From: a virus
Lineage: Duplodnaviria > Heunggongvirae > Uroviricota > Caudoviricetes
IMG/VR virus record: IMGVR_UViG_2585427754_000004
Length of the DNA stretch: 64,000 bases
Reading direction: 5' to 3' (one strand)
Within the stretch, counting starts at the first letter, position 1, and every line of letters starts with the position of its first letter. Of the stretch, positions 6,976-49,518 are shown piece after piece. The position numbers were made by a program, and so were the translations under genes. A model generated the notes under the pieces. The model was not told the origin of the DNA and did not search any database. It saw only the letters and a list, made by a program, of their open reading frames with translations.

Positions 6976-8316
6976 ATGACCGAACTTTGCCATACAGGAC
7001 GCGGGCTGTCCGAAGAGTTTGATGAAGATTTTCAGAACAGATTGACGGCCTATTTTTGTCGTGATCACGAGTTTCTTACTCGTGCTGGAGATCTGGTTGT
7101 ACCTAGCCAATTTGCCAATGCGGCCAATGCCATATTGGTTAATATGGTTTCGGGCTATTACCGTATGTACAAGAGCGCGCCCTCTTCATCTGCGATTCTG
7201 GATATGCTTAAGCGTGCGAAACGCGATAAGACTATCCGTGAGGAACTATTCGCCGATGTTGTTGCTGCGTTTAAGCGCATCCTTGCAGAAAAATTGTCTG
7301 ATACCTCGTACATGGTTGACCAGGTATCAACCTTCGCAAAAAGTGTAGCGTTTGATGATGCTCTGATTAAGGCTGCTGAACTGAAAGAGAAAGGCGACTT
7401 TCAGGGGGCGATGGCAATCATGGCCAAGGTTCAGCAGATTGGATCGAACGAAGCGACCGGAATCTATGACTACTACACCTCCGCAAGTGAGCGATTGAAG
7501 GCGCGTGAATATGAGGCTTCAGAGGAGTATGTGCCAAACAGCATTACAACTGGACTCCCTCTGCTCGATAGGTTGCTGTACCAAAAAGGCTGGGCGAAGC
7601 GTGAAATGGTGCTCTTCATGGGGTTCGCTAAATCCGGTAAATCGACCGCAATGGGTGAGTTTTCCATAAACGCAACACTTGCTGGCTACAATGTTCTGTA
7701 TCTCTCGCTGGAGGTTCACACCACCATTTTATCCGACCGTTTTGATGCAAGATTGTCGGAGACAGAAATGTCCAAGCTGGTGGAACGGCGCGATGAGGTT
7801 CATCGTAAGTTGGCAGAGTTGGGAGCCACGAAGGGGATTGGTAGTTTGTGGGTGGTTGAGCGTCCGTCAGGAAGTATGTCACCGGCAGATCTGGACCGTA
7901 TGCTTAACAGCATGAAAGCCAACGGCATGGTACCTGACATGGTTGTTGTCGACTACGCAGATTTGATGCGTGCCAGTTATGACCTTCGTGATGATCGCGC
8001 CAACATTCGTAGTATCTACACCGATTTACGTGCTCTTTATGACAAGCATAACGTTGCTGGGATCACGGCATCGCAGACAAACCGTGAAGGTGGCGCGTCA
8101 GAAGTTGCCACAATGATGCACGCTGCCGACAACATCGAAAAAGTACGTATTGCTGACCTGGTAATAACGATCAACAAAACCGAAGAAGAAGAAGCGAAAG
8201 GAGAGGCTCGTCTCTACTTTGCTGGTTCACGTAACCAGCAGGGAGGGATCAGCATTCGCGTTAAACAAAACCTCGAACAAATGCGCTTCATTGAGCGAAT
8301 CTTAGACGTTACCTAA
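6976..8316 (+). CDS. DnaB-family replicative DNA helicase
   Basis: Walker A GFAKSGKST, Walker B VVVDYADLM, RecA-like C-terminal domain; conserved upstream AAACAAnTTGTTT motif and shared translation-initiation sequence. Confidence 0.7.
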   Translation: MTELCHTGRGLSEEFDEDFQNRLTAYFCRDHEFLTRAGDLVVPSQFANAANAILVNMVSGYYRMYKSAPSSSAILDMLKRAKRDKTIREELFADVVAAFKRILAEKLSDTSYMVDQVSTFAKSVAFDDALIKAAELKEKGDFQGAMAIMAKVQQIGSNEATGIYDYYTSASERLKAREYEASEEYVPNSITTGLPLLDRLLYQKGWAKREMVLFMGFAKSGKSTAMGEFSINATLAGYNVLYLSLEVHTTILSDRFDARLSETEMSKLVERRDEVHRKLAELGATKGIGSLWVVERPSGSMSPADLDRMLNSMKANGMVPDMVVVDYADLMRASYDLRDDRANIRSIYTDLRALYDKHNVAGITASQTNREGGASEVATMMHAADNIEKVRIADLVITINKTEEEEAKGEARLYFAGSRNQQGGISIRVKQNLEQMRFIERILDVT

Positions 8317-8325
8317 AAAATAAGC

Positions 8326-9579
8326 GTGGAGAACACCTCCACGCTTGATTCATTGGTGAAACAACTTTTCTTTTGCCAAACCACAAAAGAAAAACACATG
8401 AGCCTTTATGTTATATCAACATTTAGGTTGGTCACAATATTGCCTGTTAAAAGTGGAATTATCGTGAGCGAGCTGAAAGAGCTAATTACCGAATTAGATT
8501 TTGAACAATGGTTGGATACTGAAGGTATCGTTTATCGACGTGGAGGCGTGAGTACTCGCGGTCGTGAAGTGAATATCAAGGAGTGTCCGGTATGTGGCAG
8601 CTCCAACTGGAAGGTATATTTCAATCTGACCAGTGGCGTCGGTAAATGCTTCGCTGGTGATCATCCCGAAGAGATTCAGTTCAATAAGCTGGTCTTCCTC
8701 AAGCACTACAGCGGCAAATCACGACGACAGTTCGAGGAATATGTGCAGAACGCCCTTCTTTCCCAGGGGTGGGCACCAAAGAAAGAAGAGATAGTGCTTG
8801 CAAGCACAGTCGAGTTAGAGGGACCACTTGCACTCCCTCGTCATTACGAACTTCCTATAGATGGCCGTCTTCCAGACTATCTGGTTGAACGAAACATATC
8901 GCCTGAAATGGCAAAGTATTTTGACCTACGATACTGCGTCGAAGGCAAGCACGCTTATGTAGATCCGTATACAGATCAGGTTAAAGGACAGATATTCGAT
9001 ATGCGAATACTGATACCGGTTTACGATCTGGATGGGGTAATGAAGACATTTCAGGGGCGAGACATTACCGGTACAGCTGAACGTCGCTACCTCTTTCCTA
9101 TGCAGCTTCCAGCTTCAGGTAAGTTTCTCTACAACGGCCATAATGCGGTCGGCAAACAGACTGTAGTTGTCTGTGAGGGGGCGTTCGATGTTATGGGAGT
9201 TAAACGAGCTATTTTTGATGAAGAAACATTACGTGATTACGTGGAACCGATAGGAACGTTCGGGATGCATCTATCTGGTAACACCACTCAGGATGCAGAA
9301 GATCAGTTGGGCGCGTTCCTGACGCTCAAGGCGCGTGGATTACGTAATGTGATCATGATGTGGGATAGTGAAAAGCAAGCTATACGCAACACTATGGCCG
9401 CAGCCAGGCGACTGACCAGTATTGGTCTTAATGTCAAAGTAGCATGTTTGGGCGAGGAAGGACTCGACCCAGGCGATGCAACGCCAGAACAAATTATCAA
9501 AGCCTATTATCGGGCAAAACCGTATACCAAACAGTTGGAGTTGCAAAGCAAGGTTTTGGGCATTAAGGCGCTATCGTAA
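8326..9579 (+). CDS. DNA primase (zinc-binding plus TOPRIM)
   Basis: CPVCGSS ... KCFAGDH zinc-binding element, TOPRIM-like VVVCEGAFDVMGV; adjacent to the helicase. Start may be an internal Met. Confidence 0.6.
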   Translation: MENTSTLDSLVKQLFFCQTTKEKHMSLYVISTFRLVTILPVKSGIIVSELKELITELDFEQWLDTEGIVYRRGGVSTRGREVNIKECPVCGSSNWKVYFNLTSGVGKCFAGDHPEEIQFNKLVFLKHYSGKSRRQFEEYVQNALLSQGWAPKKEEIVLASTVELEGPLALPRHYELPIDGRLPDYLVERNISPEMAKYFDLRYCVEGKHAYVDPYTDQVKGQIFDMRILIPVYDLDGVMKTFQGRDITGTAERRYLFPMQLPASGKFLYNGHNAVGKQTVVVCEGAFDVMGVKRAIFDEETLRDYVEPIGTFGMHLSGNTTQDAEDQLGAFLTLKARGLRNVIMMWDSEKQAIRNTMAAARRLTSIGLNVKVACLGEEGLDPGDATPEQIIKAYYRAKPYTKQLELQSKVLGIKALS

Positions 9580-9654
9580 CAAGTGCCGCTAAAATAAGTA
9601 GATGATTACTTATCTTTCTGTAAGAATACTTTCATCTGTTAGCTAGGAGTTGGT

Positions 9655-10431
9655 ATGAAAGACGAAATTCAGAAATTAGCCTGCGACATCATTGATAAAA
9701 CTGGTTTAGAAATCAGCGAGAGCAATCGACTAGACATCATTGAAAAAGCGGTAAAAACAGCAATGGATCATATCGCCACTCGTTTGGTCGAGATCCCGCT
9801 ACCGGGGCTACCTTATCTGAAGGTTAAGTTACACGTATGGGGTGAACCTTCTTGTGCACGGCGTTCTGCATTAGTTGTTTTTATTAGCAAAGAAAACCCG
9901 CTCAGTCTTAAAGTGCAGGTTGGTGCATGGATGGATGGCAAAGTGATCTACACAAATACCGTTTTTTGTCTTTCAAACGACGAAACTATTGAAGCGGCCA
10001 TTCAAGAAGCAGTTCTAGCAATGCGCAGCAGCGGTTTGATGAAGAATAACTACGAAGAGTACTTGCGTTCGATAAGTGGTGAAAAGACATTATCTCTGAA
10101 AGCAGATTTCGTTACCCCGAAAAACCTGTTGGAAGTCTTGCTTAATAAAGGGGCTAATGATGCCGTAAATGTAATCAGAGAGAGTGAGTATGCGTCTCTT
10201 TGCGACATGTGCAAAAGCCAGTTGGATCTGGTGCATATCGTTATTGATGCTGGGAAGGCATGTGATGGCGTAATGGCGGAATTTGCTTGGAAGGTGGTCA
10301 GGATTGCTAACGAATTACCGATGATAGAGCAAGAGGCCAAATCATACGCCACCAATCATGTCACAGAGCTTCTTGTCCCCTATCGCTTAGAAAGCAATCA
10401 GCGCAAGATGGTTAGCTGGGGAAGTTGGTAA
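9655..10431 (+). CDS. Hypothetical protein
   Basis: 258-aa ORF in the replication block. Confidence 0.3.
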   Translation: MKDEIQKLACDIIDKTGLEISESNRLDIIEKAVKTAMDHIATRLVEIPLPGLPYLKVKLHVWGEPSCARRSALVVFISKENPLSLKVQVGAWMDGKVIYTNTVFCLSNDETIEAAIQEAVLAMRSSGLMKNNYEEYLRSISGEKTLSLKADFVTPKNLLEVLLNKGANDAVNVIRESEYASLCDMCKSQLDLVHIVIDAGKACDGVMAEFAWKVVRIANELPMIEQEAKSYATNHVTELLVPYRLESNQRKMVSWGSW

Positions 10432-10486
10432 TCTCTCCGCGCGTCGTTTTTTACGCAAATAATGATAGGTAAGTACAAGATTATTT

Positions 10487-10969
10487 ATGGCGGTAGTTGT
10501 GAAAGCTGATTTGTCAAAAATCCCTTCTATTTCAGGAAATAACGGTTATTCACTTCGTTGTGAGGAAGTAAAGATAAACGGTGAGTCGGCATATTGCAGC
10601 TATTCCGTTTGCCAGCACACCATTCTTGCCTTCAAAGAAAACCGTCTTCCTCGAACTTCTTTCCAGTCGTGCGCAACCGCTATTAAAGCAGGCAAATGCA
10701 AGGCGTTAAAAATGATGGTTGAAGAGATTCGTAAAGGAGAATCTCTGTATTTCGAAGATATGACCGCGCTCATTAAGGAGGTTGAAGAACGGAATAAACA
10801 AGCCAGAACTATAAAACGAAAACGTGACAGTGTAACGATTAATAGCATGGTTAAGAAGAGCACCACATCACAAACAGCGATCACTGACGTGTATGCGGCG
10901 TTGCTTGAAGAAACAACAAAAGAAACACATGAGCAAATCGATCAACATATGGAGGCAAAACAACAATGA
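10487..10969 (+). CDS. Hypothetical protein
   Basis: 160-aa ORF; stop overlaps the ligase start. Confidence 0.3.
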   Translation: MAVVVKADLSKIPSISGNNGYSLRCEEVKINGESAYCSYSVCQHTILAFKENRLPRTSFQSCATAIKAGKCKALKMMVEEIRKGESLYFEDMTALIKEVEERNKQARTIKRKRDSVTINSMVKKSTTSQTAITDVYAALLEETTKETHEQIDQHMEAKQQ

Positions 10970-12288
10970 AAAAGTTGATCGCACTTAAGCATAAGCTGGA
11001 CGAAATGAAAGCTATGGGAACCAATGCAAAAAAAGAGGCATTGGCCAACATGGATGACTTCGAGCAAAGCATGGTTTCATTGATGCTCAACCCTTTCATC
11101 CGTTTTGGGGTAAAGAAATACAAAGTGGCAGAGCCGCTTAGTGAGTCCGTCCCAAGTGACGAAAAAGCCATTGATATACTGAATAAGCTGGCCTCTCGCG
11201 AGCTGACGGGGAACGCAGCAATAGCTGCTGTTGAGTCTATCGTGGCGTCAATGTGCGCCGATGGGCAGGACGTGTTCCGTCGTTTCCTCTTAAAAGATCC
11301 GAAAGCTGGCGTTGGGATTAGCCTATGCAACAAGGTTTTTGAAAATCCCATTCCGAAATTTGAGGTGCAGCTGGCGTCACCGTATAAAGAAAAAGGCGAC
11401 AAATACCCCTTCAAGCCAAATCCTAAAGCCAAATGGCCGATGATTGGCAGCCTTAAGCTCGATGGTTTGCGAGTAATTTGTGAGGTTATTGTTGACGAGG
11501 AAGAGGTGAACTTCCTTTCTCGTACTGGTAATCCAATCACGTCTCTCGATCACCTAAAGCCAGCCATGCTCGAATTAGGCAAACTTTCAGGCCACAAACA
11601 CATCTTCTTCGATGGTGAAGGAACAGCCGGTTCATTTAACCAGTCCGTATCTGCATTGCGCAAAAAGAACGTGCAGGCAATTGGCGCTATTTATCATGTT
11701 TTCGACTTCTTCCTACCGGAATGGCGGGCACAGGCTAAATCCAAAGAGTATGCAAAGACAGGTATGAAGCTGAAAGAGCGCCTGGCTATGCTCGTGGCGT
11801 TGTTCAAAAACGATCGCAGTGAAGGCTACGCACAAGACATTCACCTGCATCCGTTCTATATCATCCATAGCCACGAAGACTTCATCGAACGCTTCATGAA
11901 ACGCCTGGACGATAACGAAGAAGGGGAGATGGGCAAAGATCCGAACTCTGTTTACGAGTTTAAACGTACCCGCAGCTGGTGGAAGTTAAAAGACGAAGAT
12001 TCAGAAGATGGTGAAATTATCGATTTTGAGCCGGGCGATCCGGACTCTGGTTTTGCCAACACGCTTGGAAAAATTGTTATTCGCCTTGAAAACGGTGTGA
12101 TTGTTCGTGCGAGCGGCATTAAGCATAAATATCTGGACGAGATCTGGAACAACAAAGAGAAGTACCGTGGTCGTATTGTCGAGGTTCATTGTCACGAGAA
12201 AACGCAGGATGGCAGCTTACGCCACCCACGACTGAAATGGCCGCGTTGCTTACGCGATACAGAAGATCGAATCGGAGATAAAGAATGA
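10966..12288 (+). CDS. ATP-dependent DNA ligase
   Basis: Adenylation motif I KLDGLR (KxDGxR) and C-terminal lysine-rich motif; 440 aa. Confidence 0.7.
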   Translation: MKKLIALKHKLDEMKAMGTNAKKEALANMDDFEQSMVSLMLNPFIRFGVKKYKVAEPLSESVPSDEKAIDILNKLASRELTGNAAIAAVESIVASMCADGQDVFRRFLLKDPKAGVGISLCNKVFENPIPKFEVQLASPYKEKGDKYPFKPNPKAKWPMIGSLKLDGLRVICEVIVDEEEVNFLSRTGNPITSLDHLKPAMLELGKLSGHKHIFFDGEGTAGSFNQSVSALRKKNVQAIGAIYHVFDFFLPEWRAQAKSKEYAKTGMKLKERLAMLVALFKNDRSEGYAQDIHLHPFYIIHSHEDFIERFMKRLDDNEEGEMGKDPNSVYEFKRTRSWWKLKDEDSEDGEIIDFEPGDPDSGFANTLGKIVIRLENGVIVRASGIKHKYLDEIWNNKEKYRGRIVEVHCHEKTQDGSLRHPRLKWPRCLRDTEDRIGDKE

Positions 12289-13950: not shown

Positions 13951-13955
13951 ATTTA

Positions 13956-34899: not shown

Positions 34900-34987
34900 T
34901 CCAAATGTCTCTTGTTATTCGACGGCTTTGGTGGCCTTTGCTGATTACAGTGGATAGTAGCACTCATCACAGCGGTTATCCTACCGT

Positions 34988-35059: not shown

Positions 35060-35173
35060 ATATCGATCATGTCTGAAGGCAGATGGCACAACGGTTTGAG
35101 GTTGGCGGGGATCTTATTGGGTCTTTATGGGTCTCTTTGGTTCTCTTTGTGATCTGAATTACTGGATCGGGCC

Positions 35174-35182
35174 TGTGGATAA
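35174..35182 (-). promoter_or_regulatory. DnaA box (TTATCCACA on minus strand)
   Basis: TGTGGATAA on the plus strand is a perfect 9-mer consensus; two 8/9 matches nearby (35221..35229, 35548..35556). Confidence 0.5.
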
Positions 35183-35345
35183 AAATCAGAGGATTTCAAG
35201 AACAGGTAACTCTACTCTTCTGTGGATATTTAAGGACATAAGAATCATGACTAAGAGTAGAGTTTAAAATATATCTATTTATATCAGTATGTTAATGAAG
35301 AATTAAGTCATTAAGTTATCCATAAAAGACAATGTGCTCTACTCT

Positions 35346-35440
35346 CTACAGTGGATATATACAGCTCTCCAGAGTGGTTGTTTTACTCTTCATAGCGGTT
35401 ATTCAGCTCTCTACAGAGGTTTCTTTGCTCTCCATAGTGG
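35346..35440. repeat. Second array of five iterons at about 21-bp spacing
   Basis: CTACAGTGG, CAGAGTGG, CATAGCGG, CTACAGAGG, CATAGTGG cores at about 35346, 35369, 35390, 35411, 35432. Confidence 0.6.
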
Positions 35441-35483
35441 ATGGCAACACCCTTTCAGACCAGTAACCGCAACGGCTAGAGGC

Positions 35484-35541
35484 GATCGGGGATCTCTTTG
35501 GATCTTCTATTTGATCTTACTTGGGATCTCTTATTTGGATC
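35484..35541. promoter_or_regulatory. Cluster of six GATC sites in 58 bp (candidate Dam/SeqA-regulated origin region)
   Basis: GATC at 35484, 35491, 35501, 35513, 35525, 35538; a smaller cluster at 35065..35168. Confidence 0.5.
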
Positions 35542-35642
35542 TATCCAGTGGATAACTGGGATAAGTAAAACAGGCAAATGCAGATTAAGGTATGCCTAAT
35601 GAGTTATCGTAGCATCGGCCAATAACTACTGAAAAAACGATT

Positions 35643-40515: not shown

Positions 40516-41085
40516 ATGAGTAAAAAAATCAGCGTAGTTGGTGTTGATCCCTCAATGAGCAACTTTGGGCTTGCTGTGGGCACTTTAGACCTTGAGACGG
40601 ACGAACTTGAGATTCACGGCCTTACTCTTGTTGAGACTAAAGCGGGGAGTAACAAAAAGACCGTTCGTGTGAACAGTGACGATCTGCGCCGCGCCAGTGA
40701 AATATGGCGTGTTGCGAAGCCAATCATTGATAAGGCAAATATGGTTTTTTGTGAGCTACCGGTTGGGAGCCAAAACTCTCGTTCGCAGACGTCTTACGGT
40801 ATTTGTATCGGTGTACTTGCGTGTGTGGATAAGCCATTGATCCAGGTTACTCCAAACGAAATCAAGCATTTTGTCGGCAATAAACTTACTACATCGAAAG
40901 AAGAGATTATCCAGTGGGCTACGAAAAAACACCCTAAAGCACCGTGGCTGCGTCGTAAGCAATCTGGACAGGATGTTCTCGTGAACAAAAACGAACATTT
41001 GGCTGATGCGGTGGCTGCCATCCATACCGGTATGCAAACAGATCAGTTCCGCCAGGTGCGCGATGTTCTTAAGTCTCTCATTTGA
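40516..41085 (+). CDS. RuvC-like Holliday junction resolvase candidate
   Basis: N-terminal ISVVGVDPSMSNFGLAVG (compare RuvC ILGIDPGSRVTGYGV) and C-terminal EHLADAVAAIH (compare RuvC DAADALA). Confidence 0.45.
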   Translation: MSKKISVVGVDPSMSNFGLAVGTLDLETDELEIHGLTLVETKAGSNKKTVRVNSDDLRRASEIWRVAKPIIDKANMVFCELPVGSQNSRSQTSYGICIGVLACVDKPLIQVTPNEIKHFVGNKLTTSKEEIIQWATKKHPKAPWLRRKQSGQDVLVNKNEHLADAVAAIHTGMQTDQFRQVRDVLKSLI

Positions 41086-41158: not shown

Positions 41159-43474
41159 ATGATAAGCATCGTAAAACGTAACGGCCAAACAGAGCCGTTA
41201 TCCGAAGAAAAATACAACCGCGTCGTAATGTATGGCGTAGAAGGCATTCGTGGTGTAAGCGCATCCGCTGTAGCAATGGGAGCTGCGGCCAGCATTTTTG
41301 ATGGGATTACCACCAGCCAGTTGCATGAGGCTTTGGTTAAATCTGCCGCTGATTTGATCTCACCAGAAGCACCAAATTACTCACAGGTGGCTGCCCGCCT
41401 GAACATTTTTAAAATCCGCAAAGATGCCTTCGGTCGTTACGACTATCCGAACTTCTACCAACACATTGTCAAGAACGTTAACAAGGGCGTTTATGACAAG
41501 GATTTGCTGACACATTATTCGTTTGAAGAGATCGAAGAACTCGGCAATTACATTAAGCCGAAACGTGACGATCTTTTTGGCTATGCAGCTACGGTGCAGT
41601 TGCAAAGCAAATACCTCGTTCAAAACCGTGTTACTGGTGAGATTCATGAGGGGCCGCAACATATCTATATGCTGGTAGGCATGTGTCTGTTCCAGAATTG
41701 GGAAGACGACTGCGCTGGCAAAACACGTATGGAGATGGTCAAAGGTTTCTATGACGTTACAAGTACGTTCAAACTGTCTCTGCCCACACCAATCATGGCC
41801 GGCGTCCGTACTCCAACCCGTCAGTTCTCCAGTTGTGTGCTGATTGAGTCTGGCGATAGTCTGAAAGGGATTAGTGCAGCTTCAGCCGCAATTATCGACT
41901 ACGTTTCACGTCGTGCTGGAATTGGTATTGGTTTTGGCCGTATCCGTGCGCTGGGCAGCGAGATCCGCAATGGTGAAGCCACCCATACTGGAGTTATTCC
42001 ATTCCTGAAGCATTTCCAGACGGCTGTTAAATCTTGTTCGCAAGGTGGTGTTCGTGGTGGCGCAGCAACAGCGTTTTACCCGATCTGGCATCTTGAAGTT
42101 GAAAGTCTGCTGGTGGTGAAAAATAACCGTGGTATTGATGAAAACCGCGTTCGCCATCTTGATTACGGCGTCATGAGTAACCGTCTAATGTACCGTCGAC
42201 TCGTCAGAAGCGAGAACATCACTCTGTTCAGCCCGCATGATGTGCCTGATATGTACGAAGCCTTCTTCACAGACCAGGAGCTGTTTGAAAAGCTGTACCA
42301 TAAATACGAAGCCGATGATTCAATTCGCAAGAAGTCAGTACCTGCCATTGAGCTGTTCTCATCTCTGATGCAGGAACGAGCGTCCACGGGCCGAATTTAT
42401 ATTGCGAACGTCGATCATATTAACGAGCATGGCGCTTTCATTCCTGCTCTTGCACCTGTTCGCCAGTCAAACCTGTGCATGGAGATCACTCTACCCACTC
42501 GTCCACTGGCATTTACCGACGACCCGAACGGTGAGATCGCGCTATGCACTTTATCCGCTTTTAACCTCGGAGCCATCCGTTCACTGGAGTCTCTTAAAGA
42601 GGTGGCGTTCTATGCCGTTGCTGCACTGGATTCGTTACTGGATTATCAAGACTATCCGATGGAGGCAGCCGAAGTGCCTGCCAAAGCTCGTCGTAGCTTG
42701 GGAATTGGTGTAACCAACTTTGCTTATTACCTGGCAAAGAATGGCGTTCGTTATTCTGATACCGCTGGCAATAAACTGGTGCATGAAACGTTCGAAGCTA
42801 TCCAGTATTACCTTCTTGATGCCAGCTGCCGACTTGCTGAAGCAAAAGGTGAGTGTGACTGGTTTGAGCAGACCAAGTACGCAATTGGTCAGTTGCCGAT
42901 CGACCATTACCGTTCTTCATTAGACGAAAGTGGCGAAACCAACTTTGAGTTAAAGATGCCGTGGGAAGAACTGCGTGAACGTATTGCAAAATACGGCCTT
43001 CGCAACTCCACACTGACGGCACAAATGCCATGCGAGACTTCCAGCCAGATCACTAATTCCACCAACGGCATCGAACCGCCTCGTGGACCGGTGTCGGTGA
43101 AATCTTCTAAGGACGGCATCGTTAAGATGGTCGTGCCTGAGTTTGAAAAACTGAAGGAACAGTATGAATACCTGTGGGATATGCCGGACAACCGCGGCTA
43201 TCTGACAAAGGTGGCGATCATCCAGAAGTTCTTTGACCAGGCTATTTCAGCCAATACCAACTATGACCCTTCTCGCTTTGAAGGCGATAAAGTCCCAATG
43301 ATGACGCTACTGTCAGATTTGCTTCTCGCCTACAAGATGGGAGTTAAAACGCTTTACTACCACAACACCAGAGATGGTGCAGGAAAGCGTGATGACGACG
43401 AAGCGCAGAATCCACTTACGCAAGCTGTAGCCGTCGAGCCAGAAGATGAGTGCGACGGAGCCTGCAAAATCTGA
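41159..43474 (+). CDS. nrdA: Ribonucleotide reductase class Ia alpha subunit
   Basis: N-terminal ATP-cone, active-site region NLCMEI and C-terminal CDGACKI redox tail; 771 aa. Confidence 0.9.
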   Translation: MISIVKRNGQTEPLSEEKYNRVVMYGVEGIRGVSASAVAMGAAASIFDGITTSQLHEALVKSAADLISPEAPNYSQVAARLNIFKIRKDAFGRYDYPNFYQHIVKNVNKGVYDKDLLTHYSFEEIEELGNYIKPKRDDLFGYAATVQLQSKYLVQNRVTGEIHEGPQHIYMLVGMCLFQNWEDDCAGKTRMEMVKGFYDVTSTFKLSLPTPIMAGVRTPTRQFSSCVLIESGDSLKGISAASAAIIDYVSRRAGIGIGFGRIRALGSEIRNGEATHTGVIPFLKHFQTAVKSCSQGGVRGGAATAFYPIWHLEVESLLVVKNNRGIDENRVRHLDYGVMSNRLMYRRLVRSENITLFSPHDVPDMYEAFFTDQELFEKLYHKYEADDSIRKKSVPAIELFSSLMQERASTGRIYIANVDHINEHGAFIPALAPVRQSNLCMEITLPTRPLAFTDDPNGEIALCTLSAFNLGAIRSLESLKEVAFYAVAALDSLLDYQDYPMEAAEVPAKARRSLGIGVTNFAYYLAKNGVRYSDTAGNKLVHETFEAIQYYLLDASCRLAEAKGECDWFEQTKYAIGQLPIDHYRSSLDESGETNFELKMPWEELRERIAKYGLRNSTLTAQMPCETSSQITNSTNGIEPPRGPVSVKSSKDGIVKMVVPEFEKLKEQYEYLWDMPDNRGYLTKVAIIQKFFDQAISANTNYDPSRFEGDKVPMMTLLSDLLLAYKMGVKTLYYHNTRDGAGKRDDDEAQNPLTQAVAVEPEDECDGACKI

Positions 43475-43479
43475 CATAT

Positions 43480-43510
43480 GGTGGGGTATATCCCCACCTT
43501 ATCTTTGATT
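43480..43510 (+). terminator. Terminator hairpin after nrdA
   Basis: GGTGGGG-tatat-CCCCACC followed by a T-rich run. Confidence 0.6.
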
Positions 43511-43574
43511 TGTAAGCCTTGTTTAAACACATAAGATAACAACTTGTTTAAACACATCAAAAAAGGAAAAACAC

Positions 43575-44717
43575 ATGTCATATTCAACGTTCCGTTTGGG
43601 TGCTAATGATGCAACCAAAGAGCCTATGTTCCTCGGACAATCTGTCAACGTGGCACGTTACGATCAGCAAAAATACCGTGATTTTGAAAAGTTGATTGAA
43701 CGTCAATTGTCTTTCTTCTGGCGGCCGGAAGAAGTTGATATTTCGAGTGATCGTATCGACTTCAACACGAAGCTGCGGGACCACGAACGTCACATTTTTC
43801 TGAGCAATCTCCGTTATCAAACGTTACTCGATTCAGTTCAGGGACGTAGCCCAAATGCAACGCTTCTGCCGCTTATCTCTATTCCTGAACTGGAAACGTG
43901 GGTTGAAACATGGTCTTTCTCTGAGACTATCCATAGCCGCAGCTACACCCACATTATTCGTGGCATGGTGGACGATCCGAGTATTGTTTTTGACGGTATT
44001 GTTACGGATGAAGAAATCATCAACCGAGCGATCAGTATCTCTGCTGAATATGACAGGCTTTATGGGATGACCTGCGAGCGCCAGTCGTTAGGTGAGAAAG
44101 AGTTTGAACGTCTGTACGTAAATGAATATGGCTGGGAGCCATACCCTTTGCACCGTCAGCTTTTCCGCACGTTGGTGTCCATTAATGCGCTTGAGGCGAT
44201 CCGTTTCTATGTAAGTTTTGCATGTACGTTTGCCTTTGGCGAACGGAAGTTGCTTGAGGGTAACACCAAAATTATGCGCTTTATTGCCCGTGATGAAGCT
44301 CTGCATTGCGAAGGAACTGAACGCATGATCCGCTTCATGCGTACCGGTCGCGAAGGCTTATTGTGGAAAGAGATTGCTGCTGATGAAGAAAACGTCATTT
44401 ACGACACCATGAAATCAGTCGCCGAACAAGAAATGAACTGGGCAGACTATCTCTTCAAAGACGGTTCGATGATTGGTTTAAACGCGGATATTCTGAAGAC
44501 CTATGTAAAATACCGCACCAATCTGGCTATGAATCGTCTTGGCCTGAAGGCTTTATTTCCAGAAGTTACCACAGATCCGCTGGTCTGGATGAACAAGTGG
44601 TTGTTAACCGACACACTGCAAATTGCACCACAAGAGGCAGAGCAAAGCACATATCTGGTAGGTCAGATCGATTCTACCGTGGATAAGGCTTCTCTAAGCC
44701 AGTTTGCAGACCTGTAA
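43575..44717 (+). CDS. nrdB: Ribonucleotide reductase class Ia beta subunit
   Basis: Di-iron/tyrosyl radical motifs ([23 protein letters not shown]); 380 aa; no intron interruption seen. Confidence 0.9.
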
Positions 44718-44794
44718 ACCGATACAAAGCATTATGTGGCCTGGCAACGCTGGGCCACAATGGATCACAAGAATTAAGAAGGAACAAAACTAGC

Positions 44795-45664
44795 ATGAAC
44801 TTTACCAAACTGACTGACCACCTGAAACTTGCCACCGATCGTCTCATTGGATTTAAGCCAGAACCATATGAGTTGCATGAAGGTCATGGTGTAGCTACTG
44901 AAAGTATTTACAAGATGGTCGATCAGTTTCATGAACTCTTCCTGCATCCGAGACGCGTTATGCCGACACCAGAGCTGCTTCGTCTCCGTGCAAGCCTGAT
45001 TCATGAAGAAGCTGTAGTGGAAGGTATTCCAGCCGCAATGAATGGGGATATTGAGCAACTGCTGGATGCAATGGCCGACTTTTTATACGTTGGTGTTGGT
45101 ACGATGGTCGCCATCAAAGGTGGTATTTCTACCGGCATGACCTATTACACGCAGGAACAGAGCATTGATCGCTTTATGCAGACAATTTTTGTGCCCGGTA
45201 ACACTGTTTTCGATGATATGGCAATGCCATTTCAGGAAGCTCGTGAGGCGTCATGTATGCTCGAAGAGCTGGCAGATAAACTTGAGAACAAGACTGTTAA
45301 GGATTCTGAGCTGATTCAGGAACTGCGCCGTGTCATGAACAAAATCTATGTGGCGTGCATGATGACCTATCGACTGGCTGATTTCCTCGGTATCAATGTA
45401 GTCGAGCTGGTTGGAGAAATTCATCGGTCTAACATGACAAAATTATGGCCTGCTGATGTAGAGGAACGTCGCCAGGCTGTGGCCAACTGCAAATACGACT
45501 CTTCAGACCTGGGATTTCGCCATGCTGATGGTACCGATAAGATGATCGGTTTTCGAATTTCCGATGGAAAGATTCTGAAGTCTCCAACCTATAGTGATGT
45601 CGATTTATCCTCCTTTGTTGAGCAAGCTAAAGCCTCAGCAATGTACGGAATGATCAAAAAATAA
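44795..45664 (+). CDS. Hypothetical protein, possible all-alpha NTP pyrophosphohydrolase (MazG-like)
   Basis: Segment EEAVVEGIPAAMNGDIEQLLDAMADFLYVGVG resembles the MazG/HisE metal-binding helix pair; weak. Confidence 0.3.
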   Translation: MNFTKLTDHLKLATDRLIGFKPEPYELHEGHGVATESIYKMVDQFHELFLHPRRVMPTPELLRLRASLIHEEAVVEGIPAAMNGDIEQLLDAMADFLYVGVGTMVAIKGGISTGMTYYTQEQSIDRFMQTIFVPGNTVFDDMAMPFQEAREASCMLEELADKLENKTVKDSELIQELRRVMNKIYVACMMTYRLADFLGINVVELVGEIHRSNMTKLWPADVEERRQAVANCKYDSSDLGFRHADGTDKMIGFRISDGKILKSPTYSDVDLSSFVEQAKASAMYGMIKK

Positions 45665-45732
45665 TTGTAGGTAGTTATCTATCTGTGTATATTTAACATG
45701 CGTAATAAAACTCTGGAATGACTATTCGTTTT

Positions 45733-45758
45733 GGTGGCCTATGGCCACCATTTTTTTA
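45733..45758 (+). terminator. Rho-independent terminator
   Basis: TGGTGGCC-tat-GGCCACCA followed by TTTTTTT. Confidence 0.7.
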
Positions 45759-45834
45759 TCTGTCTGGTCTTGTTCTCTCAATGAATGTAAACTCACACGA
45801 TGAATAAGTAATTACTTATCTTTGTGAGGTTTTT

Positions 45835-46938
45835 GTGTCACTCCTTTTGAATCGAGAGCATACGAACGGTCAGGTAACAAACGCATCGTATGCAAAAGTT
45901 ATTGAGACGGTGCTTAAAAGCGGCGTGCAGGCTGATGATCGCACAGGCACTGGTACTTTAAGCACCTGCTACGTTCCCTCTTACTACATGCTTACTGGTG
46001 GGACTGTGCCGCTTATTTCTGGAAAGGCGGTAAATCTTAAGCCACTACTTGTCGAACTTGAGTGGTATCTGAAAGGCACGGGCAACATCCAATTTCTCAA
46101 GGATAACGGCGTTAAGATTTGGGATGCATGGGCCGATGAGAATGGCGATTTGGGGCCGGTTTACGGTAAGCAGTGGCGTCGATGGGAAGATACCCGCATC
46201 GTGAGCCATAGTGAATATCTGAGCAAGATCGCTACTTTCCGTGAACGCGGGTACAAAGTCGAGGGATACCTGGGTATCAGTGAAGATCGCGTAGTGCTGT
46301 CCCGTGAAATCGATCAGCTACAGCGTATTGTCGATACACTGCGCACGAACCATACCGATCGTCGCATCATGCTTAACGCATGGAACGTAGGCGAGCTTGA
46401 GGATATGAAACTGCCACCTTGCCACTTTGTCTTCTCTTTGTGGAGTCGTGAGCTGGATTTTGAAACCCGTTTAACGATGGCAACTGACATTGGTCTTCAA
46501 CACAGTCGCCTCGGTTACGAGTCTATCTACACCAAGATGCTATACGATCTGGAGATGGACGGCAGTGTTACTGAAGCTGAACTGGATGAACTTGGAATCC
46601 CCAAACGCATCCTCAACTCCTGCCTCGTACAGCGTAGCGTAGACACTTTTGTTGGTATGCCATTCAATATTGCTGGCTATGGCATTCTCACTCATTTTCT
46701 CGCGAAGATTACGGGTCACATGGCCGGTGCATTTGTGCATTTTGGCTTTGACGTGCATTTGTACAACAACCACATGGAAGGTGTGTGTGAGCTAATGAAA
46801 CGACAGGCTCCAGAGCATTCAGATCCGGTCGTTATTTTCCCTCATGAATGGTCAGAGTTGGATGATTTCAAATGGGACGAGGTTTTAATTCTTGGCTATG
46901 ACCCTCTACCGTGGATCAAGGTTCCAGTGGCGGTGTGA
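45835..46938 (+). CDS. thyA: Thymidylate synthase (ThyA family) with two internal insertions
   Basis: DRTGTGT, catalytic PPCH, QRSVD ... PFNIAGY (Asn indicates dUMP specificity), DVHLYNNHMEG and C-terminal GYDPLPWIKVPVAV. GTG start. Confidence 0.8.
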   Translation: MSLLLNREHTNGQVTNASYAKVIETVLKSGVQADDRTGTGTLSTCYVPSYYMLTGGTVPLISGKAVNLKPLLVELEWYLKGTGNIQFLKDNGVKIWDAWADENGDLGPVYGKQWRRWEDTRIVSHSEYLSKIATFRERGYKVEGYLGISEDRVVLSREIDQLQRIVDTLRTNHTDRRIMLNAWNVGELEDMKLPPCHFVFSLWSRELDFETRLTMATDIGLQHSRLGYESIYTKMLYDLEMDGSVTEAELDELGIPKRILNSCLVQRSVDTFVGMPFNIAGYGILTHFLAKITGHMAGAFVHFGFDVHLYNNHMEGVCELMKRQAPEHSDPVVIFPHEWSELDDFKWDEVLILGYDPLPWIKVPVAV

Positions 46939-46939
46939 T

Positions 46940-47353
46940 ATGGCAAGAGGTATGTATGTCTTATGCGAAATTGAAGGTGTGCTGGCAAATGCCAGCCATC
47001 GTAAATCAGTATCTGACGCGGATGCAGGCCAGCTCATTGCCGGTGATGAACTCATTTTCCCCACCAGCCGTATGTTGCGTGGTTTTGCTCGCTCAGGGGC
47101 TGAAGTGGTGCTTATCAGTAGCCGCTCTGAAACTCTTGAAGCGCCAACTAAACGATGGCTGAAAGATTTTGGCGTTGATTATGACTGGCTTCATCTTGTA
47201 CCGAATGGCACCAGTTATGAGAAGCATATTAAGCGCACATTAGCGGAGCATAAAGGCGATCTGCTTATCGCTGCGCTGGTGCACGATCCTCGACTCCGTG
47301 CCGCTTTAGCCGACTCTCACCATCGACCGGTCATCTATGAGGTGAGCAAATGA
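46940..47353 (+). CDS. Hypothetical protein
   Basis: ORF between thyA and the DHFR gene; start set at first ATG after the thyA stop. Confidence 0.3.
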   Translation: MARGMYVLCEIEGVLANASHRKSVSDADAGQLIAGDELIFPTSRMLRGFARSGAEVVLISSRSETLEAPTKRWLKDFGVDYDWLHLVPNGTSYEKHIKRTLAEHKGDLLIAALVHDPRLRAALADSHHRPVIYEVSK

Positions 47354-47826
47354 AGATGATCGCTGCTGTTGGCCGTAACTATGAGATCGGCATAGCGAAT
47401 GAACTCCCCTGGCGTTGTTCTACCGATCTGAAGCTATTTAAGAGACTCACCAAAAACGCCACTGTCGTTATGGGGCGTAAAACGATGGAAAGTCTCAAAC
47501 GCCCTCTTCCAGAGCGTCATAACCTCGTTTTGACGCGCTCTCATGGCTTTGTACCAAATGGATTCTACCCTGCTGGTGTGGATGATGTGTTGCGATTACC
47601 AGAGCCTGTGTGGGTGATTGGCGGGGAACAAATTTACTCGCTATTCATGCCGCATGTTGAAGAGATTTGGCTCTCCCACATCGGCGTTGATGTACCAAAC
47701 GCCGATGCATTCTTCCCGGCAAGCATGATGCGTAACTTAGGCTTTGTGCCTGTTGAAACAGCTTATACCCAACGAGCCAGCGAGGAAGAGCCTGGCTTTT
47801 CGCAGATCGTATACAGAAGGTCGTAA
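47350..47826 (+). CDS. Dihydrofolate reductase
   Basis: MIAAVGRNYEIGIANELPW ... VMGRKT ... VWVIGGEQIY matches the DHFR fold signature; 158 aa. Confidence 0.8.
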   Translation: MKMIAAVGRNYEIGIANELPWRCSTDLKLFKRLTKNATVVMGRKTMESLKRPLPERHNLVLTRSHGFVPNGFYPAGVDDVLRLPEPVWVIGGEQIYSLFMPHVEEIWLSHIGVDVPNADAFFPASMMRNLGFVPVETAYTQRASEEEPGFSQIVYRRS

Positions 47827-48470
47827 TGGATTACCGGATTGGGATCACTGGTGCTCAGGGCAGTGGGAAAACAACCCTGGCAAAATATATCGACAAACAT
47901 TACGGAATCCCTTACGTGGATGCTGGTGTCGGAAGTTTGATGAGCCGCCTCGGTGTTCGAGTAGGTGAGTCTATGCCTCTATATGAGCGGCTTCAGATTC
48001 AAATGGAAATAGCAAAGCATATAGAGCTACTTACGCGTGGTGTTGAAGGCTTTGTTATCGATCGCACACCTGCTGATGTTATGGCCTACACGTTGGATTT
48101 GGTCGGCCATACCAATGAAGATCGATGTATTGAGTTAGCCCTCGATATCGAAAAGTTTTGCCACAAAACTGCTATTTCAAACTTTAACGCCATTGCTGGC
48201 TTACGCCCGGGAGTCGCTCTCTCAGAGCGAGATTACTTGCGATCACAACGAGCATCATTAGACCGTCTGTATGTCGCTCGTATTGATGCGTTGATGTGCG
48301 GGGAACTGACAAAAATTCACCTGCATCCGCAAAGGGGGGATCTGCAAACCTTCGTCGTTTCCAACCGATATCGCACGGTTGAAGCAAGAGCCAGATCAGT
48401 GATGAGAATGCTAGATAACGCTGTAGAAAAGATAGAAAACCGGTTCTGTGGCCGAGTGACCGTTCATTAG
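47826..48470 (+). CDS. P-loop nucleotide kinase-like protein (dNMP kinase candidate)
   Basis: N-terminal Walker A GITGAQGSGKTT; sits in the nucleotide-metabolism block. Confidence 0.45.
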   Translation: MDYRIGITGAQGSGKTTLAKYIDKHYGIPYVDAGVGSLMSRLGVRVGESMPLYERLQIQMEIAKHIELLTRGVEGFVIDRTPADVMAYTLDLVGHTNEDRCIELALDIEKFCHKTAISNFNAIAGLRPGVALSERDYLRSQRASLDRLYVARIDALMCGELTKIHLHPQRGDLQTFVVSNRYRTVEARARSVMRMLDNAVEKIENRFCGRVTVH

Positions 48471-48531
48471 AAATTGTTCGCCTCTTCGACATTGCGACAA
48501 TAAAACTCTCAAAATGGGTTAAGGATAAAAA

Positions 48532-48951
48532 ATGTTTAGTGAAATGTTGCTTGAAGATGAACTGGATCGGAAAACAACAGAGGCTTTGATTCGTGTAGCG
48601 GACGAACATTCCCGGTCGCTTATGAGCGATCGAGAGGCTCGTCTGGCTATTCGTGCCATATTCGAAACTGCGCAGGGGCTTGTTGGCGCACAAGTAGGTG
48701 AAGCCATTAACATCGCCATGTCTCAGTTCAGTGAAGACAGTAAAAAGCCTCTGTTTCCTATGCATTTGATGCTGGCTGGTGGCACGGTGCTTTATATCTC
48801 TGTTTGTCTGGATAGCAACCAAATCAATATTCTCAACACTGCGTCAGGTAAGTGGAAAGATCCGATTGTCTGTGAAACCAGTGAAGAAACTTTGAAAAAA
48901 GCGGCTCAATTTGTACGTAGCGCACTACTTAAGGGCGCTAAGAAGTTGTAA
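48532..48951 (+). CDS. Hypothetical protein
   Basis: 139-aa ORF. Confidence 0.3.
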   Translation: MFSEMLLEDELDRKTTEALIRVADEHSRSLMSDREARLAIRAIFETAQGLVGAQVGEAINIAMSQFSEDSKKPLFPMHLMLAGGTVLYISVCLDSNQINILNTASGKWKDPIVCETSEETLKKAAQFVRSALLKGAKKL

Positions 48952-48960
48952 GGAGTTCTG

Positions 48961-49518
48961 ATGACAACGATTGTTGCAGGCATCGATATCGAGTCTACGG
49001 GACTGGATTTCCTTGCTGGTCATAAAATTATTGAAATCGCAATTACCCGCTATGAACTGGAGACACAGAGACATATTGATAGTCTGGAGATGCGTTTTAA
49101 CCCTCGCAGAAACATAGATCCGAAAGCTCAAGCCGTTCATGGCATTTCATTAGAACAGCTCGCAGCTGAACCTTTGTTGTCAAATCATGCCAGCGAAATT
49201 GGCGCTTATATGGGGGCATGTAGTGCGTGGATTGCTCATAACGGCGAAGCGTTTGATATACCATTTATTCGACACGAGTTTTCAGGGTATGGAGTAAGAC
49301 TGCCAGACGTTCCCGTTATAGATACTATGTTATCGGGATTGTGGGCCACAGAAGACGGTAAACGTCCTCGCCTTGAAGAGTTGGCCTTCTCTCTTGGCTT
49401 TATATACGATCATGCCAAAGCACATAGTGCCTTATATGACACAAACTTAATGATGCAATGCTTCTTTAAGGCACGTAATAAGTACGGATTTTTTAAATTA
49501 CCCTCTGAAATTGTGTAA
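48961..49518 (+). CDS. DnaQ-like 3'-5' exonuclease (DEDDh family), likely proofreading partner of DnaE
   Basis: Exo I GIDIESTGL, Exo II AHNGEAFDIPF, Exo III HSALYDT. Confidence 0.75.
   Translation: MTTIVAGIDIESTGLDFLAGHKIIEIAITRYELETQRHIDSLEMRFNPRRNIDPKAQAVHGISLEQLAAEPLLSNHASEIGAYMGACSAWIAHNGEAFDIPFIRHEFSGYGVRLPDVPVIDTMLSGLWATEDGKRPRLEELAFSLGFIYDHAKAHSALYDTNLMMQCFFKARNKYGFFKLPSEIV

Follow-up and report, generated by a model that had tools for sequence, protein, structure and literature searches.

The interval from 6976 to 49518 of the analysed stretch (the window; 64,000 nucleotides of viral DNA, IMG/VR record IMGVR_UViG_2585427754_000004) was found to carry a conserved module for replication, recombination and nucleotide metabolism, which belongs to an E. 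coli SSU5-like phage-plasmid closely related to Cyrano (pLF82). Taken jointly with the lysogenic and lytic mechanism proposed below, this reading is in our judgement very probably correct. In comparisons of the window with Escherichia phage Cyrano (pLF82), two queries of 24-25 kb showed 98.0% and 99.3% nucleotide identity over 97-100% of the query. Gene order and functions matched those of Cyrano, Salmonella phage SSU5 and pHCM2-type phage-plasmids (the SSU5 supergroup), SSU5 itself being 77-80% identical to the window at the nucleotide level. Like the supergroup, the element is plasmid-borne in E. coli and contains a RepA/iteron replicon and ParA-like genes.

Both the element and its unusual polymerase are known from earlier work; the phage-plasmid is common in E. 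coli and is already annotated, and the public Cyrano annotation (OV696614) names every gene of the first-pass annotation. Cyrano, that is pLF82, is an SSU5-like element with about 5.5 copies per cell, which is induced by ciprofloxacin and makes virions (PMC9928086). Among the 5426 complete E. coli genomes of our study, 244 carried the dnaE gene, plasmid-borne every time and chromosomal in none; the eight dnaE-bearing plasmids listed ranged between 107.5 and 112 kb. The literature searched yielded no experimental work on this replisome.

The edges of the interval are ORF boundaries, namely the start of the helicase gene (6976) and the stop of the DnaQ-like gene (49518). The genes listed by the first-pass annotation of the sequence were all on the plus strand, as are the other features given below except the plasmid replicon. 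Each was found in its place by Pfam, PHROG or AlphaFold2 fold, including the UvsY-like and RuvC-like genes that had been named tentatively, which bore out the gene calls.

The DnaE polymerase and the DnaQ-like exonuclease

The dnaE gene (21221..24739) encodes a DnaE-type C-family DNA polymerase of 1172 amino acids, with Pfam matches to PHP, DNA_pol3_alpha (8.9e-74), finger and HHH_6. The protein cleared the NCBIfam superfamily cut-off (TIGR00594) and fell under every equivalog cut-off for DnaE1 and DnaE2. Its identity to E. coli alpha was 30% over amino acids 4-956, where the homology ends, and the polymerase aspartates D420, D422 and D555 were present. The PHP domain (21221..21970) was degenerate at all nine metal-ligand positions, which were read from an alignment to M. 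tuberculosis DnaE1 and E. coli alpha and contained M5, R7, E14, S39, K63, S148, P210 and Y212, with no His near 96-97. The loss of metal-binding residues noted in the first-pass annotation was thus borne out, with none of the nine canonical ligands kept unchanged as against roughly four of nine in E. coli by our reading of the alignment, and the same loss was found in the relatives P0097, P0113 and P0121. The alignments also showed an insertion of about 50 amino acids in the fingers region (23441..23593), which was missing in the DnaE of Taq, E. coli, Pseudomonas phage nickie (Nickievirus), P0113 and P0121. In K. pneumoniae relatives, an HNH homing-endonuclease ORF was present right after the insertion point, and dnaE was split into parts of 787 and 389 amino acids.

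The C-terminal part of DnaE (24194..24736) contained a family-4 UDG-like domain (Pfam UDG, E 0.017; NCBIfam UDG_fam4, 5.3e-7, under cut-off), which stands in place of the OB and tau-binding domains. Its AlphaFold2 model (pLDDT 83) gave family-4 UDG and UdgX as best Foldseek matches (E 1e-11, TM 0.61-0.79). Motif A was LDNAN, motif B was NPN and only two Cys were present; with motifs so degenerate the domain is probably non-catalytic. The domain had been overlooked in the first-pass annotation. The DnaE-UDG architecture, contiguous or split, was kept in 138 database representatives, and the RefSeq note for Rhizobium phage RHEph10 reads 'uracil-DNA glycosylase-like'. In Y. pestis and S. enterica, Timinskas et al. 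(2014, NAR) previously reported a DnaE variant, 'DnaEX', in which UDG replaces the OB domain and CTD. The architecture found here, PHP-Pol3-(HhH)2-UDG, is identical and is now backed by fold; added here are the degenerate UDG motifs, the QAELM sequence before the domain, the complete loss of the PHP site, and the wide occurrence of the variant in siphophages of about 110 kb, where in some cases an HNH endonuclease splits it.

Most C-family polymerases found on plasmids belong to DnaE2, and most DnaE2 share a degenerate PHP site (Timinskas et al. 2014). This would suit an error-prone enzyme of the DnaE2/ImuC type that has an auxiliary role and is cargo of the plasmid, not its replicase. However, DnaE scored 403 bits against the error-prone family, whose cut-off is 939, and the UDG domain is not part of DnaE2. 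The gene sits within a helicase-primase-SSB-ligase array, and no other polymerase is annotated in Cyrano or in the replication block (50 kb) read from nickie. We therefore consider an auxiliary role highly improbable and treat DnaE as the replicase.

The DnaQ-like gene (48961..49518; Pfam RNase_T, 1.1e-20) encodes a DEDDh 3'-5' exonuclease of 185 amino acids, in which the catalytic set is intact and the residues D9, E11, D99, H155 and D160 are invariant across the family. Its closest PDB match was epsilon (1.5e-10), with 29% identity. The protein terminates about 25 amino acids past Exo III with a conserved G-[FLY]-[FV]-x-x-P motif and is devoid of the C-terminal alpha-binding and clamp-binding tail of epsilon. 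The gene is located 24 kb downstream of dnaE, and directly upstream of it is a conserved ORF of 139 amino acids (48532..48951; PHROG 5373, unknown function) with homologues at the corresponding position in SSU5, nickie and Stenotrophomonas phage ANB28.

The first-pass annotation had proposed that proofreading is delegated to this protein, which is plausible. Of the 31 phage records carrying the DnaE-UDG type, with hosts among the alpha- and gamma-proteobacteria, at least 30 also contained the short DnaQ; because the alpha-binding tail is lacking, we infer proofreading in trans from this strict co-occurrence only. The protein could instead be a free-standing DEDDh exonuclease with another task, for instance in processing recombination ends, breaking down host DNA or countering defence, with DnaE replicating without proofreading. 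The missing tail, the 24-kb distance and scores under every NCBIfam epsilon cut-off (e.g., 71.5 vs 196 bits) agree with such a role, whereas the co-occurrence, the invariant DEDDh residues and the closest match to epsilon speak against it. Moreover, the PHP metal site is wholly lost across the clade, so that no other 3'-5' exonuclease is available. A free-standing role is on balance unlikely, and proofreading in trans is preferred. The pair resembles the E. coli Pol III core (alpha-epsilon-theta) in its C-family polymerase, inactive PHP site and separate DEDDh exonuclease, but differs in the domains missing from DnaE and the tail missing from the exonuclease; theta, tau, clamp and clamp loader are likewise not encoded by the element.

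Processivity and the plasmid replicon

Neither the window nor the complete Cyrano genome was found to encode a sliding clamp or clamp loader. In one MAFFT alignment, the sequence QAELM of DnaE (amino acids 970-974; 24128..24142), a candidate beta-clamp-binding motif, aligned with QADMF (920-924) of E. coli alpha. The Q was invariant among relatives and nickie DnaE contained QKELL at this position; the motif lies in a low-pLDDT linker and its final residue is M, not F. On this alignment, processivity would most likely come from the host beta clamp via QAELM, with the UDG-like domain possibly helping.

A UDG domain has been proposed as a processivity factor for phage PolA of the SPO1/T5 type (PMC3201878), and a parallel proposal exists for vaccinia D4. 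By analogy, the UDG-like domain might be a built-in processivity factor, the clamp and loader would not be needed, and elongation would be truly host-independent. The absence of encoded clamp and loader genes, the UDG fold with degenerate catalytic motifs in place of the OB and tau-binding domains, and the retention of this architecture in the database representatives would fit this idea; yet Q-x-x-L-M/L is conserved where alpha has its internal clamp-binding motif, and we hold a built-in factor to be decidedly unlikely beside use of the host clamp.

A plasmid replicon was found on the minus strand (33489..35554), comprising repA (Rep3 family, 33844-34899; Pfam Rep3_N, 1.3e-10, and Rep3_C) and flanking iteron arrays at about 33489-33840 and 34937-35554, which contained CTCTCTATAGTGGAT-type repeats at 21-bp spacing. 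This replicon, lying inside the interval, would depend on the host replisome. The toolkit had been described as nearly host-independent; the listed genes are indeed encoded, but the description is overstated, since the clamp and loader are absent, a candidate beta-clamp motif is kept and the RepA/iteron replicon relies on the host replisome.

Further genes and the proposed course of replication

The DnaB-like replicative helicase (446 amino acids; 6976..8316) was over the cut-off of Pfam DnaB_C (E 3.6e-13) and under that of NCBIfam phage_DnaB (4.9e-14), and is labelled 'DNA Helicase' in Cyrano. It was followed by a DnaG-type primase (417 amino acids; 8326..9579; PHROG 47 'DNA primase', 2e-65), whose Pfam DNAG_N (DnaG_N) and Toprim_2 matches were slightly under cut-off, and by an ATP-dependent DNA ligase (10966..12288; Pfam DNA_ligase_A_M, 8.8e-13). 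The primase-ligase gap (9655..10969) contained two conserved ORFs of 258 and 160 amino acids (PHROGs 4248 and 5055, unknown function; no match in the Pfam search), and nickie contains two hypothetical ORFs in the equivalent position. Directly upstream of dnaE were a CobT-like VWA protein (17601-19709; Pfam CobT_C, 1.5e-82) and a CobS-like AAA+ ATPase (19805-21040; Pfam AAA_5, 2.1e-15). With 69 and 85 bits, respectively, the two scored far under the NCBIfam cobaltochelatase cut-offs of 759 and 558 bits.

The UvsY-like recombination mediator (143 amino acids; 26691..27122), annotated 'UvsY' in Cyrano, has the T4 UvsY fold as modelled; the assignment is drawn from this fold and a weak PHROG match (PHROG 231, E 1.9e-4). 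The best 19 PDB matches of its AlphaFold2 model (pLDDT 90) were all T4 UvsY crystal chains (TM 0.63-0.93). It was followed by a T4 gp32-like single-strand DNA-binding protein (27240..28268; Pfam gp32, 1.7e-66), a 5'-3' exonuclease/flap endonuclease (28278..29273; Pfam 5_3_exonuc_N, 2.2e-24, and 5_3_exonuc, 6.9e-12) and a RecA-family recombinase of 357 amino acids (29542..30615; Pfam RecA, 2.3e-42). The recombinase was under the NCBIfam RecA equivalog cut-off, and in the PDB it matched bacterial RecA with an E of about 1e-34 and, more weakly, phage UvsX with an E of 2e-9. Further downstream were SbcD-like (36542-37627; Pfam Metallophos, 8.4e-10) and SbcC-like (37857-39773; Pfam AAA_23, SMC_N and SbcC_Walker_B) nuclease subunits and a RuvC-like Holliday junction resolvase of 189 amino acids (40516..41085; PHROG 159, 3e-57). 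The resolvase had no match in the Pfam and NCBIfam searches, and by inspection it contained the motifs VGVD11PS, FCE80LP and NEH161LAD164. Genes for nucleotide supply (41159..48470) encoded NrdA, NrdB, MazG-like, ThyA, PNKP-phosphatase-like, DHFR and P-loop kinase-like proteins (Pfam).

T4 gp46/47 are members of the SbcCD family, and the window shares with the T4 set this pair as well as a gp32-family SSB, a UvsY fold, FEN, an ATP ligase and a junction resolvase; Cyrano also has an annotated counterpart of UvsW, located outside the interval. It differs from T4 in having a C-family instead of a B-family polymerase, a recombinase that resembles bacterial RecA more than UvsX, and a RuvC-like resolvase in place of endo VII, and the T4 gp45/gp44/gp62 clamp and loader genes have no counterparts in the window.

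We propose that, during lysogeny, the embedded RepA/iteron replicon would maintain the element as a low-copy plasmid via the host replisome. After SOS induction, the DnaB-like helicase and primase would open and prime forks, and DNA would be synthesised by DnaE, with its dead PHP site and its presumably non-catalytic UDG-like domain in place of the OB and tau-binding domains. The small DnaQ-like exonuclease may proofread in trans, and the host beta clamp may confer processivity through QAELM, possibly assisted by the UDG-like domain. The gp32-like SSB, UvsY-like mediator, RecA-family recombinase and SbcCD would start T4-style recombination-dependent replication, to which the UvsW-like helicase of Cyrano may contribute. 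Okazaki fragments would be matured by FEN, RNase H and the ATP ligase, concatemers would be debranched by the RuvC-like resolvase ahead of packaging, and dNTPs would be supplied by RNR, ThyA, DHFR and the kinase.

Synteny and age of the module

The array had been described as a composite of bacterial-type and T4-like genes, and the gene-family names do hint at mixed ancestry. If it were a recent chimera, dnaE and dnaQ of an enterobacterial host would have been joined to T4-derived recombination genes. The identity of DnaE and the DnaQ-like protein to E. coli alpha and epsilon is, however, only 30% and 29%, respectively, homology to alpha ends at amino acid 956, and GC is even over the block (0.43-0.50). 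In nickie, about 20 replication genes from helicase to DnaQ were found in the same order as in the window, including CobT/CobS upstream of dnaE and the small ORF before dnaQ; in RHEph10, the order matched from CobT/CobS to SbcC over the 18.6-kb stretch read. Both phages have hosts other than that of the window, and the CobT/CobS-like pair also precedes dnaE in the K. pneumoniae relatives. A recent chimera is thus extremely improbable; the block is not a recent composite but an old syntenic module.

Nickie DnaE was 35% identical over its full length and contained the UDG-like end, whereas the fingers insertion was absent from it and the RepA/iteron replicon was not seen in the nickie syntenic block. 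At closer range, the RecA of Cyrano contains a LAGLIDADG intein, which that of the window lacks; four tRNA genes were present in the window and three in Cyrano, and a cold-shock-domain gene was found at the site of the Cyrano HicAB. The two dnaE genes were 96% identical, with one diverged stretch.

Gene content of the interval and identity of the element

The interval 6976–49518 was found to be bounded by ORFs at both ends: a 446-aa ORF has its start codon at position 6976, and a 185-aa ORF has its stop codon at position 49518. Nearly all of its long ORFs were present on the plus strand, and the G+C content was uniform throughout (0.43–0.50). Profile searches with Pfam and PHROG confirmed each gene named in the first-pass annotation, and the observation of a replication and recombination block is real. 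Pfam searches identified a DnaB-like helicase (6976–8316), an ATP-dependent ligase (10966–12288), a 5'-3' exonuclease of the FEN type (28278–29273) and the SbcD and SbcC pair (36542–39773), all on the plus strand. The DnaG-type primase (8326–9579, plus strand) was slightly under the Pfam threshold and matched the PHROG family 'DNA primase' at 2e-65. The gp32-like SSB (27240–28268, plus strand) matched Pfam gp32 (PF08804) at 1.7e-66 over 208 of 208 profile positions. The nucleotide genes within the block encoded a class Ia ribonucleotide reductase, a thymidylate synthase, DHFR, a MazG-like protein and a kinase-like protein.

In two queries of 24–25 kb, the window shared 98.0% and 99.3% identity with Escherichia phage Cyrano (pLF82, OV696614) and 77–80% identity with Salmonella phage SSU5, with similarity covering most of 49 kb. 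Sequence similarity and a shared gene order with SSU5, pHCM2 and Cyrano placed it in the SSU5 supergroup, a well-described set of phage-plasmids. Plasmid functions were represented by a Rep3-family RepA with iterons, ParA-like genes and extrachromosomal matches. Of the 5426 complete E. coli genomes, 244 (~4.5%) contained the dnaE gene; all 250 matches were located on plasmids, the best of them 99.9% identical. In E. coli LF82, Cyrano exists as the plasmid pLF82, an SSU5-like phage-plasmid kept at ~5.5 copies per cell, and it is induced by ciprofloxacin and produces siphovirus particles (PMC9928086). Its public annotation names the helicase, primase, ligase, Pol III alpha, UvsY, gp32-like SSB, exonuclease, RecA, SbcCD, RuvC and an 'Exonuclease, PolIII subunit epsilon'. 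Cyrano contains the complete virion module, whereas the window reaches only the tail-fibre end (35–1417), which encodes an S74 chaperone domain together with a T-even gp38-type adhesin.

The DnaE polymerase and its C-terminal domain

The dnaE gene (21221–24739, plus strand) encoded a protein with four Pfam domains (PHP, Pol3-alpha, finger and HHH_6), and its score against the NCBIfam superfamily model TIGR00594 was 626 bits against a cut-off of 434 bits, which identified it as a C-family polymerase. The catalytic residues D420, D422 and D555 were present and aligned to the catalytic aspartates of the Taq and E. coli alpha subunits. In the comparison with E. coli alpha, identity was 30% across amino acids 4–956, with no homology beyond amino acid 956. 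The protein scored 675 bits in the DnaE1 (Pol III alpha) equivalog NF004226, below its cut-off of 1002 bits. A DnaE2-type mutasome polymerase, or error-prone ImuC, was rejected because the score in NF004225 was 403 bits against a cut-off of 939 bits.

The nine conserved PHP metal ligands (H, H, D, H, E, H, C, D and H) were scored in an alignment with M. tuberculosis DnaE1, which has an active PHP domain, and E. coli alpha. The window DnaE contained M5, R7, E14, S39 and K63 at the first five positions, no histidine at the sixth (~96–97), and S148, P210 and Y212 at the last three. This ligand alignment did not place the protein among those with an active PHP proofreading domain, and it bore out the earlier remark that the PHP-like region lacks the usual metal-binding histidines. 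The loss of ligands was common to relatives at 44–55% identity.

The C-terminal ~180 amino acids (24194–24736) were found to form a family-4 UDG-like domain, which the first-pass annotation had overlooked. Bacterial replicative DnaE1 contains an OB fold and a tau-binding C-terminal domain at this place, whereas the window DnaE has the alpha/beta fold of UDG there. UDG was absent from the Pfam domain calls for DnaE. The Pfam UDG model matched the C-terminus at E 0.017, and the NCBIfam UDG_fam4 model matched at 5.3e-7. The best matches of the C-terminus among PDB sequences were all family-4 UDGs. The AlphaFold2 model of the domain had a pLDDT of 83, and Foldseek matched it to 4zbx with E 1.3e-11 and to family-4 UDG entries with TM 0.67–0.79; UdgX was also among the best matches (E 1e-11). 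In the family-4 test TIGR00758, DnaE scored 29.5 bits, below the cut-off of 125 bits. Family-4 UDGs carry GE[GA]PG as motif A, HP[SA] as motif B and four Fe-S cysteines. The window domain contained LDNAN at the motif A position, NPN at the motif B position and two cysteines, and judged by these residues it is probably non-catalytic.

When the UDG-like piece was searched for exhaustively, 138 representatives were recovered, in which it formed the C-terminus of proteins of either ~1080–1140 or ~385–390 amino acids. The word-indexed search with the same piece returned fragments only, and exhaustive and full-length searches were required. The RefSeq note on the polymerase of Rhizobium phage RHEph10 reads 'uracil-DNA glycosylase-like', and the UDG-bearing DnaE architecture has already been published for plasmids of the pHCM2/pMT1 type (Timinskas et al.). 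The element, its annotation and the unusual architecture of its polymerase were all previously known from databases and literature.

A candidate clamp-binding motif, QAELM (amino acids 970–974), was located in a low-confidence linker of the DnaE model immediately upstream of the UDG-like domain. It aligned with the internal clamp-binding QADMF of E. coli alpha and was kept in the relatives, the equivalent in Pseudomonas phage nickie being QKELL. The fingers region contained an insertion of ~50 amino acids (23441–23593). Its identification as a mini-intein was rejected on inspection because an N-terminal Cys/Ser and a C-terminal His-Asn were both missing and the insertion was too short. Many relatives from K. 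pneumoniae and Enterobacter had dnaE split shortly past the insertion point by a homing-endonuclease gene (NUMOD4 and HNH_3), giving ORFs of 787 and 389 amino acids (4001–8253 in the relative L008); the cluster of the 787-aa fragment contained 1105 member sequences.

The DnaQ-like exonuclease and the recombination proteins

The RNase_T/DEDDh exonuclease (48961–49518, plus strand) was identified by Pfam, and its residues D9, E11, D99, H155 and D160, covering motifs Exo I–III, were invariant in the alignment with epsilon. The exonuclease contained only 185 amino acids and stopped ~25 amino acids past Exo III; epsilon has a clamp-binding and alpha-PHP-binding tail, whereas the DnaQ-like protein has neither. 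It was under every epsilon cut-off, with 71.5 against 196 bits in NF004316 and 52.7 against 71.5 bits in TIGR00573. The DnaE-UDG end was carried by 31 phage records, comprising SSU5-like, Pseudomonas nickie-like, Rhizobium RHEph10-like, Stenotrophomonas and Xanthomonas phages, and at least 30 of these 31 were also among the listed full-length matches of the short DnaQ-like protein. This co-occurrence is the basis on which the two proteins are paired, and both their association and proofreading by the exonuclease are putative. The phage DnaQ-like family shared a C-terminal G-[FLY]-[FV]-x-x-P motif (YGFFKLP in the window, amino acids 175–181, 49483–49503), which occupies roughly the same place as the clamp-binding QTSMAF of epsilon. 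Directly upstream of the exonuclease gene, a 139-aa ORF (48532–48951) with a conserved N-terminal helix region was present, at the same position as in SSU5, nickie and Stenotrophomonas ANB28; it may encode an accessory subunit.

The 143-aa ORF at 26691–27122 (plus strand) had a weak match, near full length, to the PHROG 231 family 'UvsY-like' (E 1.9e-4) and no Pfam match. Single-sequence and profile searches against PDB sequences returned nothing meaningful, and hhalign of its alignment against T4 UvsY gave a probability of 0.2%. The AlphaFold2 model built from 16 homologues had a pLDDT of 90, and the top 19 matches in the PDB fold search were all crystal chains of T4 UvsY, which has a four-helix monomer (TM 0.63–0.93). 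The protein was resolved solely by the fold search and not by sequence methods, and on the predicted fold we accept the UvsY-like mediator that had been suggested as possible. The nickie ORF at the same position had no BLASTP similarity to it.

The recombinase (29542–30615, plus strand, 357 amino acids) had been described as both RecA-like and T4-like. The first description was upheld by its Pfam RecA match (2.3e-42). The protein resembled bacterial RecA (E ~1e-34) more closely than phage UvsX (2e-9), and it scored 154 bits in the RecA equivalog, below the cut-off of 325 bits; the label 'T4-like recombinase' is therefore inaccurate. The Cyrano RecA coding sequence is 779 amino acids long (22954–25293 of the Cyrano sequence) because it contains a LAGLIDADG-type intein, whereas the window RecA is devoid of an intein. 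The RuvC-like protein (40516–41085, plus strand) matched PHROG 159 at 3e-57 and had no Pfam, NCBIfam or PDB sequence match. Its motifs D11/E80/H161/D164 were identified by eye, and it is a putative resolvase.

Conservation of the block, host dependence and proposed mode of replication

The gene order of the block was found throughout in nickie: helicase, primase, two ORFs without assigned function, ligase, CobT, CobS, DnaE, SSB, FEN, RecA, SbcD, SbcC, RuvC, NrdA, NrdB, ThyA, DHFR, kinase, a small ORF and DnaQ. An 18.6-kb stretch of RHEph10 contained CobT/CobS, DnaE, SSB, FEN, RecA, SbcD and SbcC in the same order. The possibility that dnaE and dnaQ had recently been captured from the host was rejected on the nickie synteny, the alignment of the DnaQ-like protein with epsilon and the 30% identity of DnaE to alpha. 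The interpretation in the first-pass annotation was largely right, with two terms too strong. One of them is 'composite', since the assembly is not recent and both the nickie order and the RHEph10 stretch retain it.

Directly upstream of dnaE, the window encoded a CobT-like VWA protein together with a CobS-like AAA+ ATPase (17601–21040; 11981–15382 and 981–4823 in the relatives L010 and L014, respectively), and this arrangement was kept in nickie, RHEph10 and the Klebsiella relatives. The pair matched the domain families alone; in the cobaltochelatase equivalogs its scores were 69 bits, for a cut-off of 759 bits, and 85 bits, for a cut-off of 558 bits. As these scores are far under the cut-offs, the pair probably has another, replication-linked role.

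The second term is 'nearly host-independent', which is overstated. No sliding clamp or clamp loader was found among the window ORFs of at least 80 amino acids or in the full Cyrano annotation, and a RepA/iteron replicon lies inside the interval. The Rep3-family repA (33844–34899, minus strand) had iteron arrays of the CTCTCTATAGTGGAT type with 21-bp spacing on both sides (33489–35554), and this plasmid replicon occupied a mid-position in the lytic replication block. It is the replicon used in lysogeny, and we infer that it depends on the host replisome.

In the mechanism that we regard as most likely, the plasmid would be maintained during lysogeny by RepA, the iterons and the replisome of the host. 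After SOS induction, the forks would be run by the helicase-primase pair and DnaE, with the DnaQ-like exonuclease proofreading in trans; the host beta clamp would probably be engaged via QAELM, and the UDG-like domain possibly adds DNA grip. Recombination-dependent replication would be driven by the gp32, UvsY-like, RecA-family and SbcCD proteins; UvsW is annotated elsewhere in Cyrano. The lagging strands would be completed by FEN, RNase H and ligase, the concatemers debranched by the RuvC-like enzyme, and the dNTPs supplied by the nucleotide genes. The RNase H gene (52180–52854) was located just past the interval and is probably part of the replication toolkit.

A wider reading, which we consider rather unlikely as a whole, would see here a distinct C-family replisome type of ~110-kb siphophages and phage-plasmids. 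Its DnaE would have a dead PHP domain and a non-catalytic, DNA-gripping UDG-like domain replacing the OB and tau-binding domains; its proofreader would be a tail-less epsilon-like protein docking via G-[FLY]-[FV]-x-x-P or the preceding small ORF; and the CobS/CobT-like AAA+/VWA pair would serve as a replisome loader or chaperone and not in cobalamin synthesis.

Phage-plasmids of the SSU5 type are frequent in E. coli, Salmonella, Klebsiella and Yersinia and can carry resistance genes, and their mode of lytic-phase replication therefore matters for how these phage-plasmids spread. Their replisome couples a bacterial-type polymerase to T4-type recombination proteins, and no biochemical study of it was found in the literature searched. 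It would offer a tractable model for a C-family polymerase working without tau or a clamp loader of its own, for the purpose of a polymerase-fused UDG-like domain and for the way in which a proofreader acting in trans is recruited when the epsilon tail is missing. The reason why the CobS/CobT-like pair and the small ORF stay fixed beside dnaE and dnaQ is also experimentally approachable.

Several other genes were observed in and around the block. A GIY-YIG (LEM-3-like) nuclease gene was present at 5140–5907 on the minus strand, and a Dam-type adenine methyltransferase gene just past the interval (50672–51265). The tRNA cluster at 13876–14529 contained four genes (Asn, Tyr, Thr and Ser), whereas Cyrano is annotated with three tRNAs, none of them tRNA-Tyr. 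At 15554–17038, a tyrosine recombinase ('integrase') adjoined a small minus-strand ORF, the counterpart of the putative repressor of Cyrano; in a plasmid prophage, this recombinase may act in dimer resolution instead of integration. The gap between dnaE and uvsY is a variable cargo spot: the window contained a cold-shock-domain protein and a 199-aa ORF without known function (25043–26187, minus strand), whereas Cyrano has a HicA/HicB toxin-antitoxin pair at the same place.
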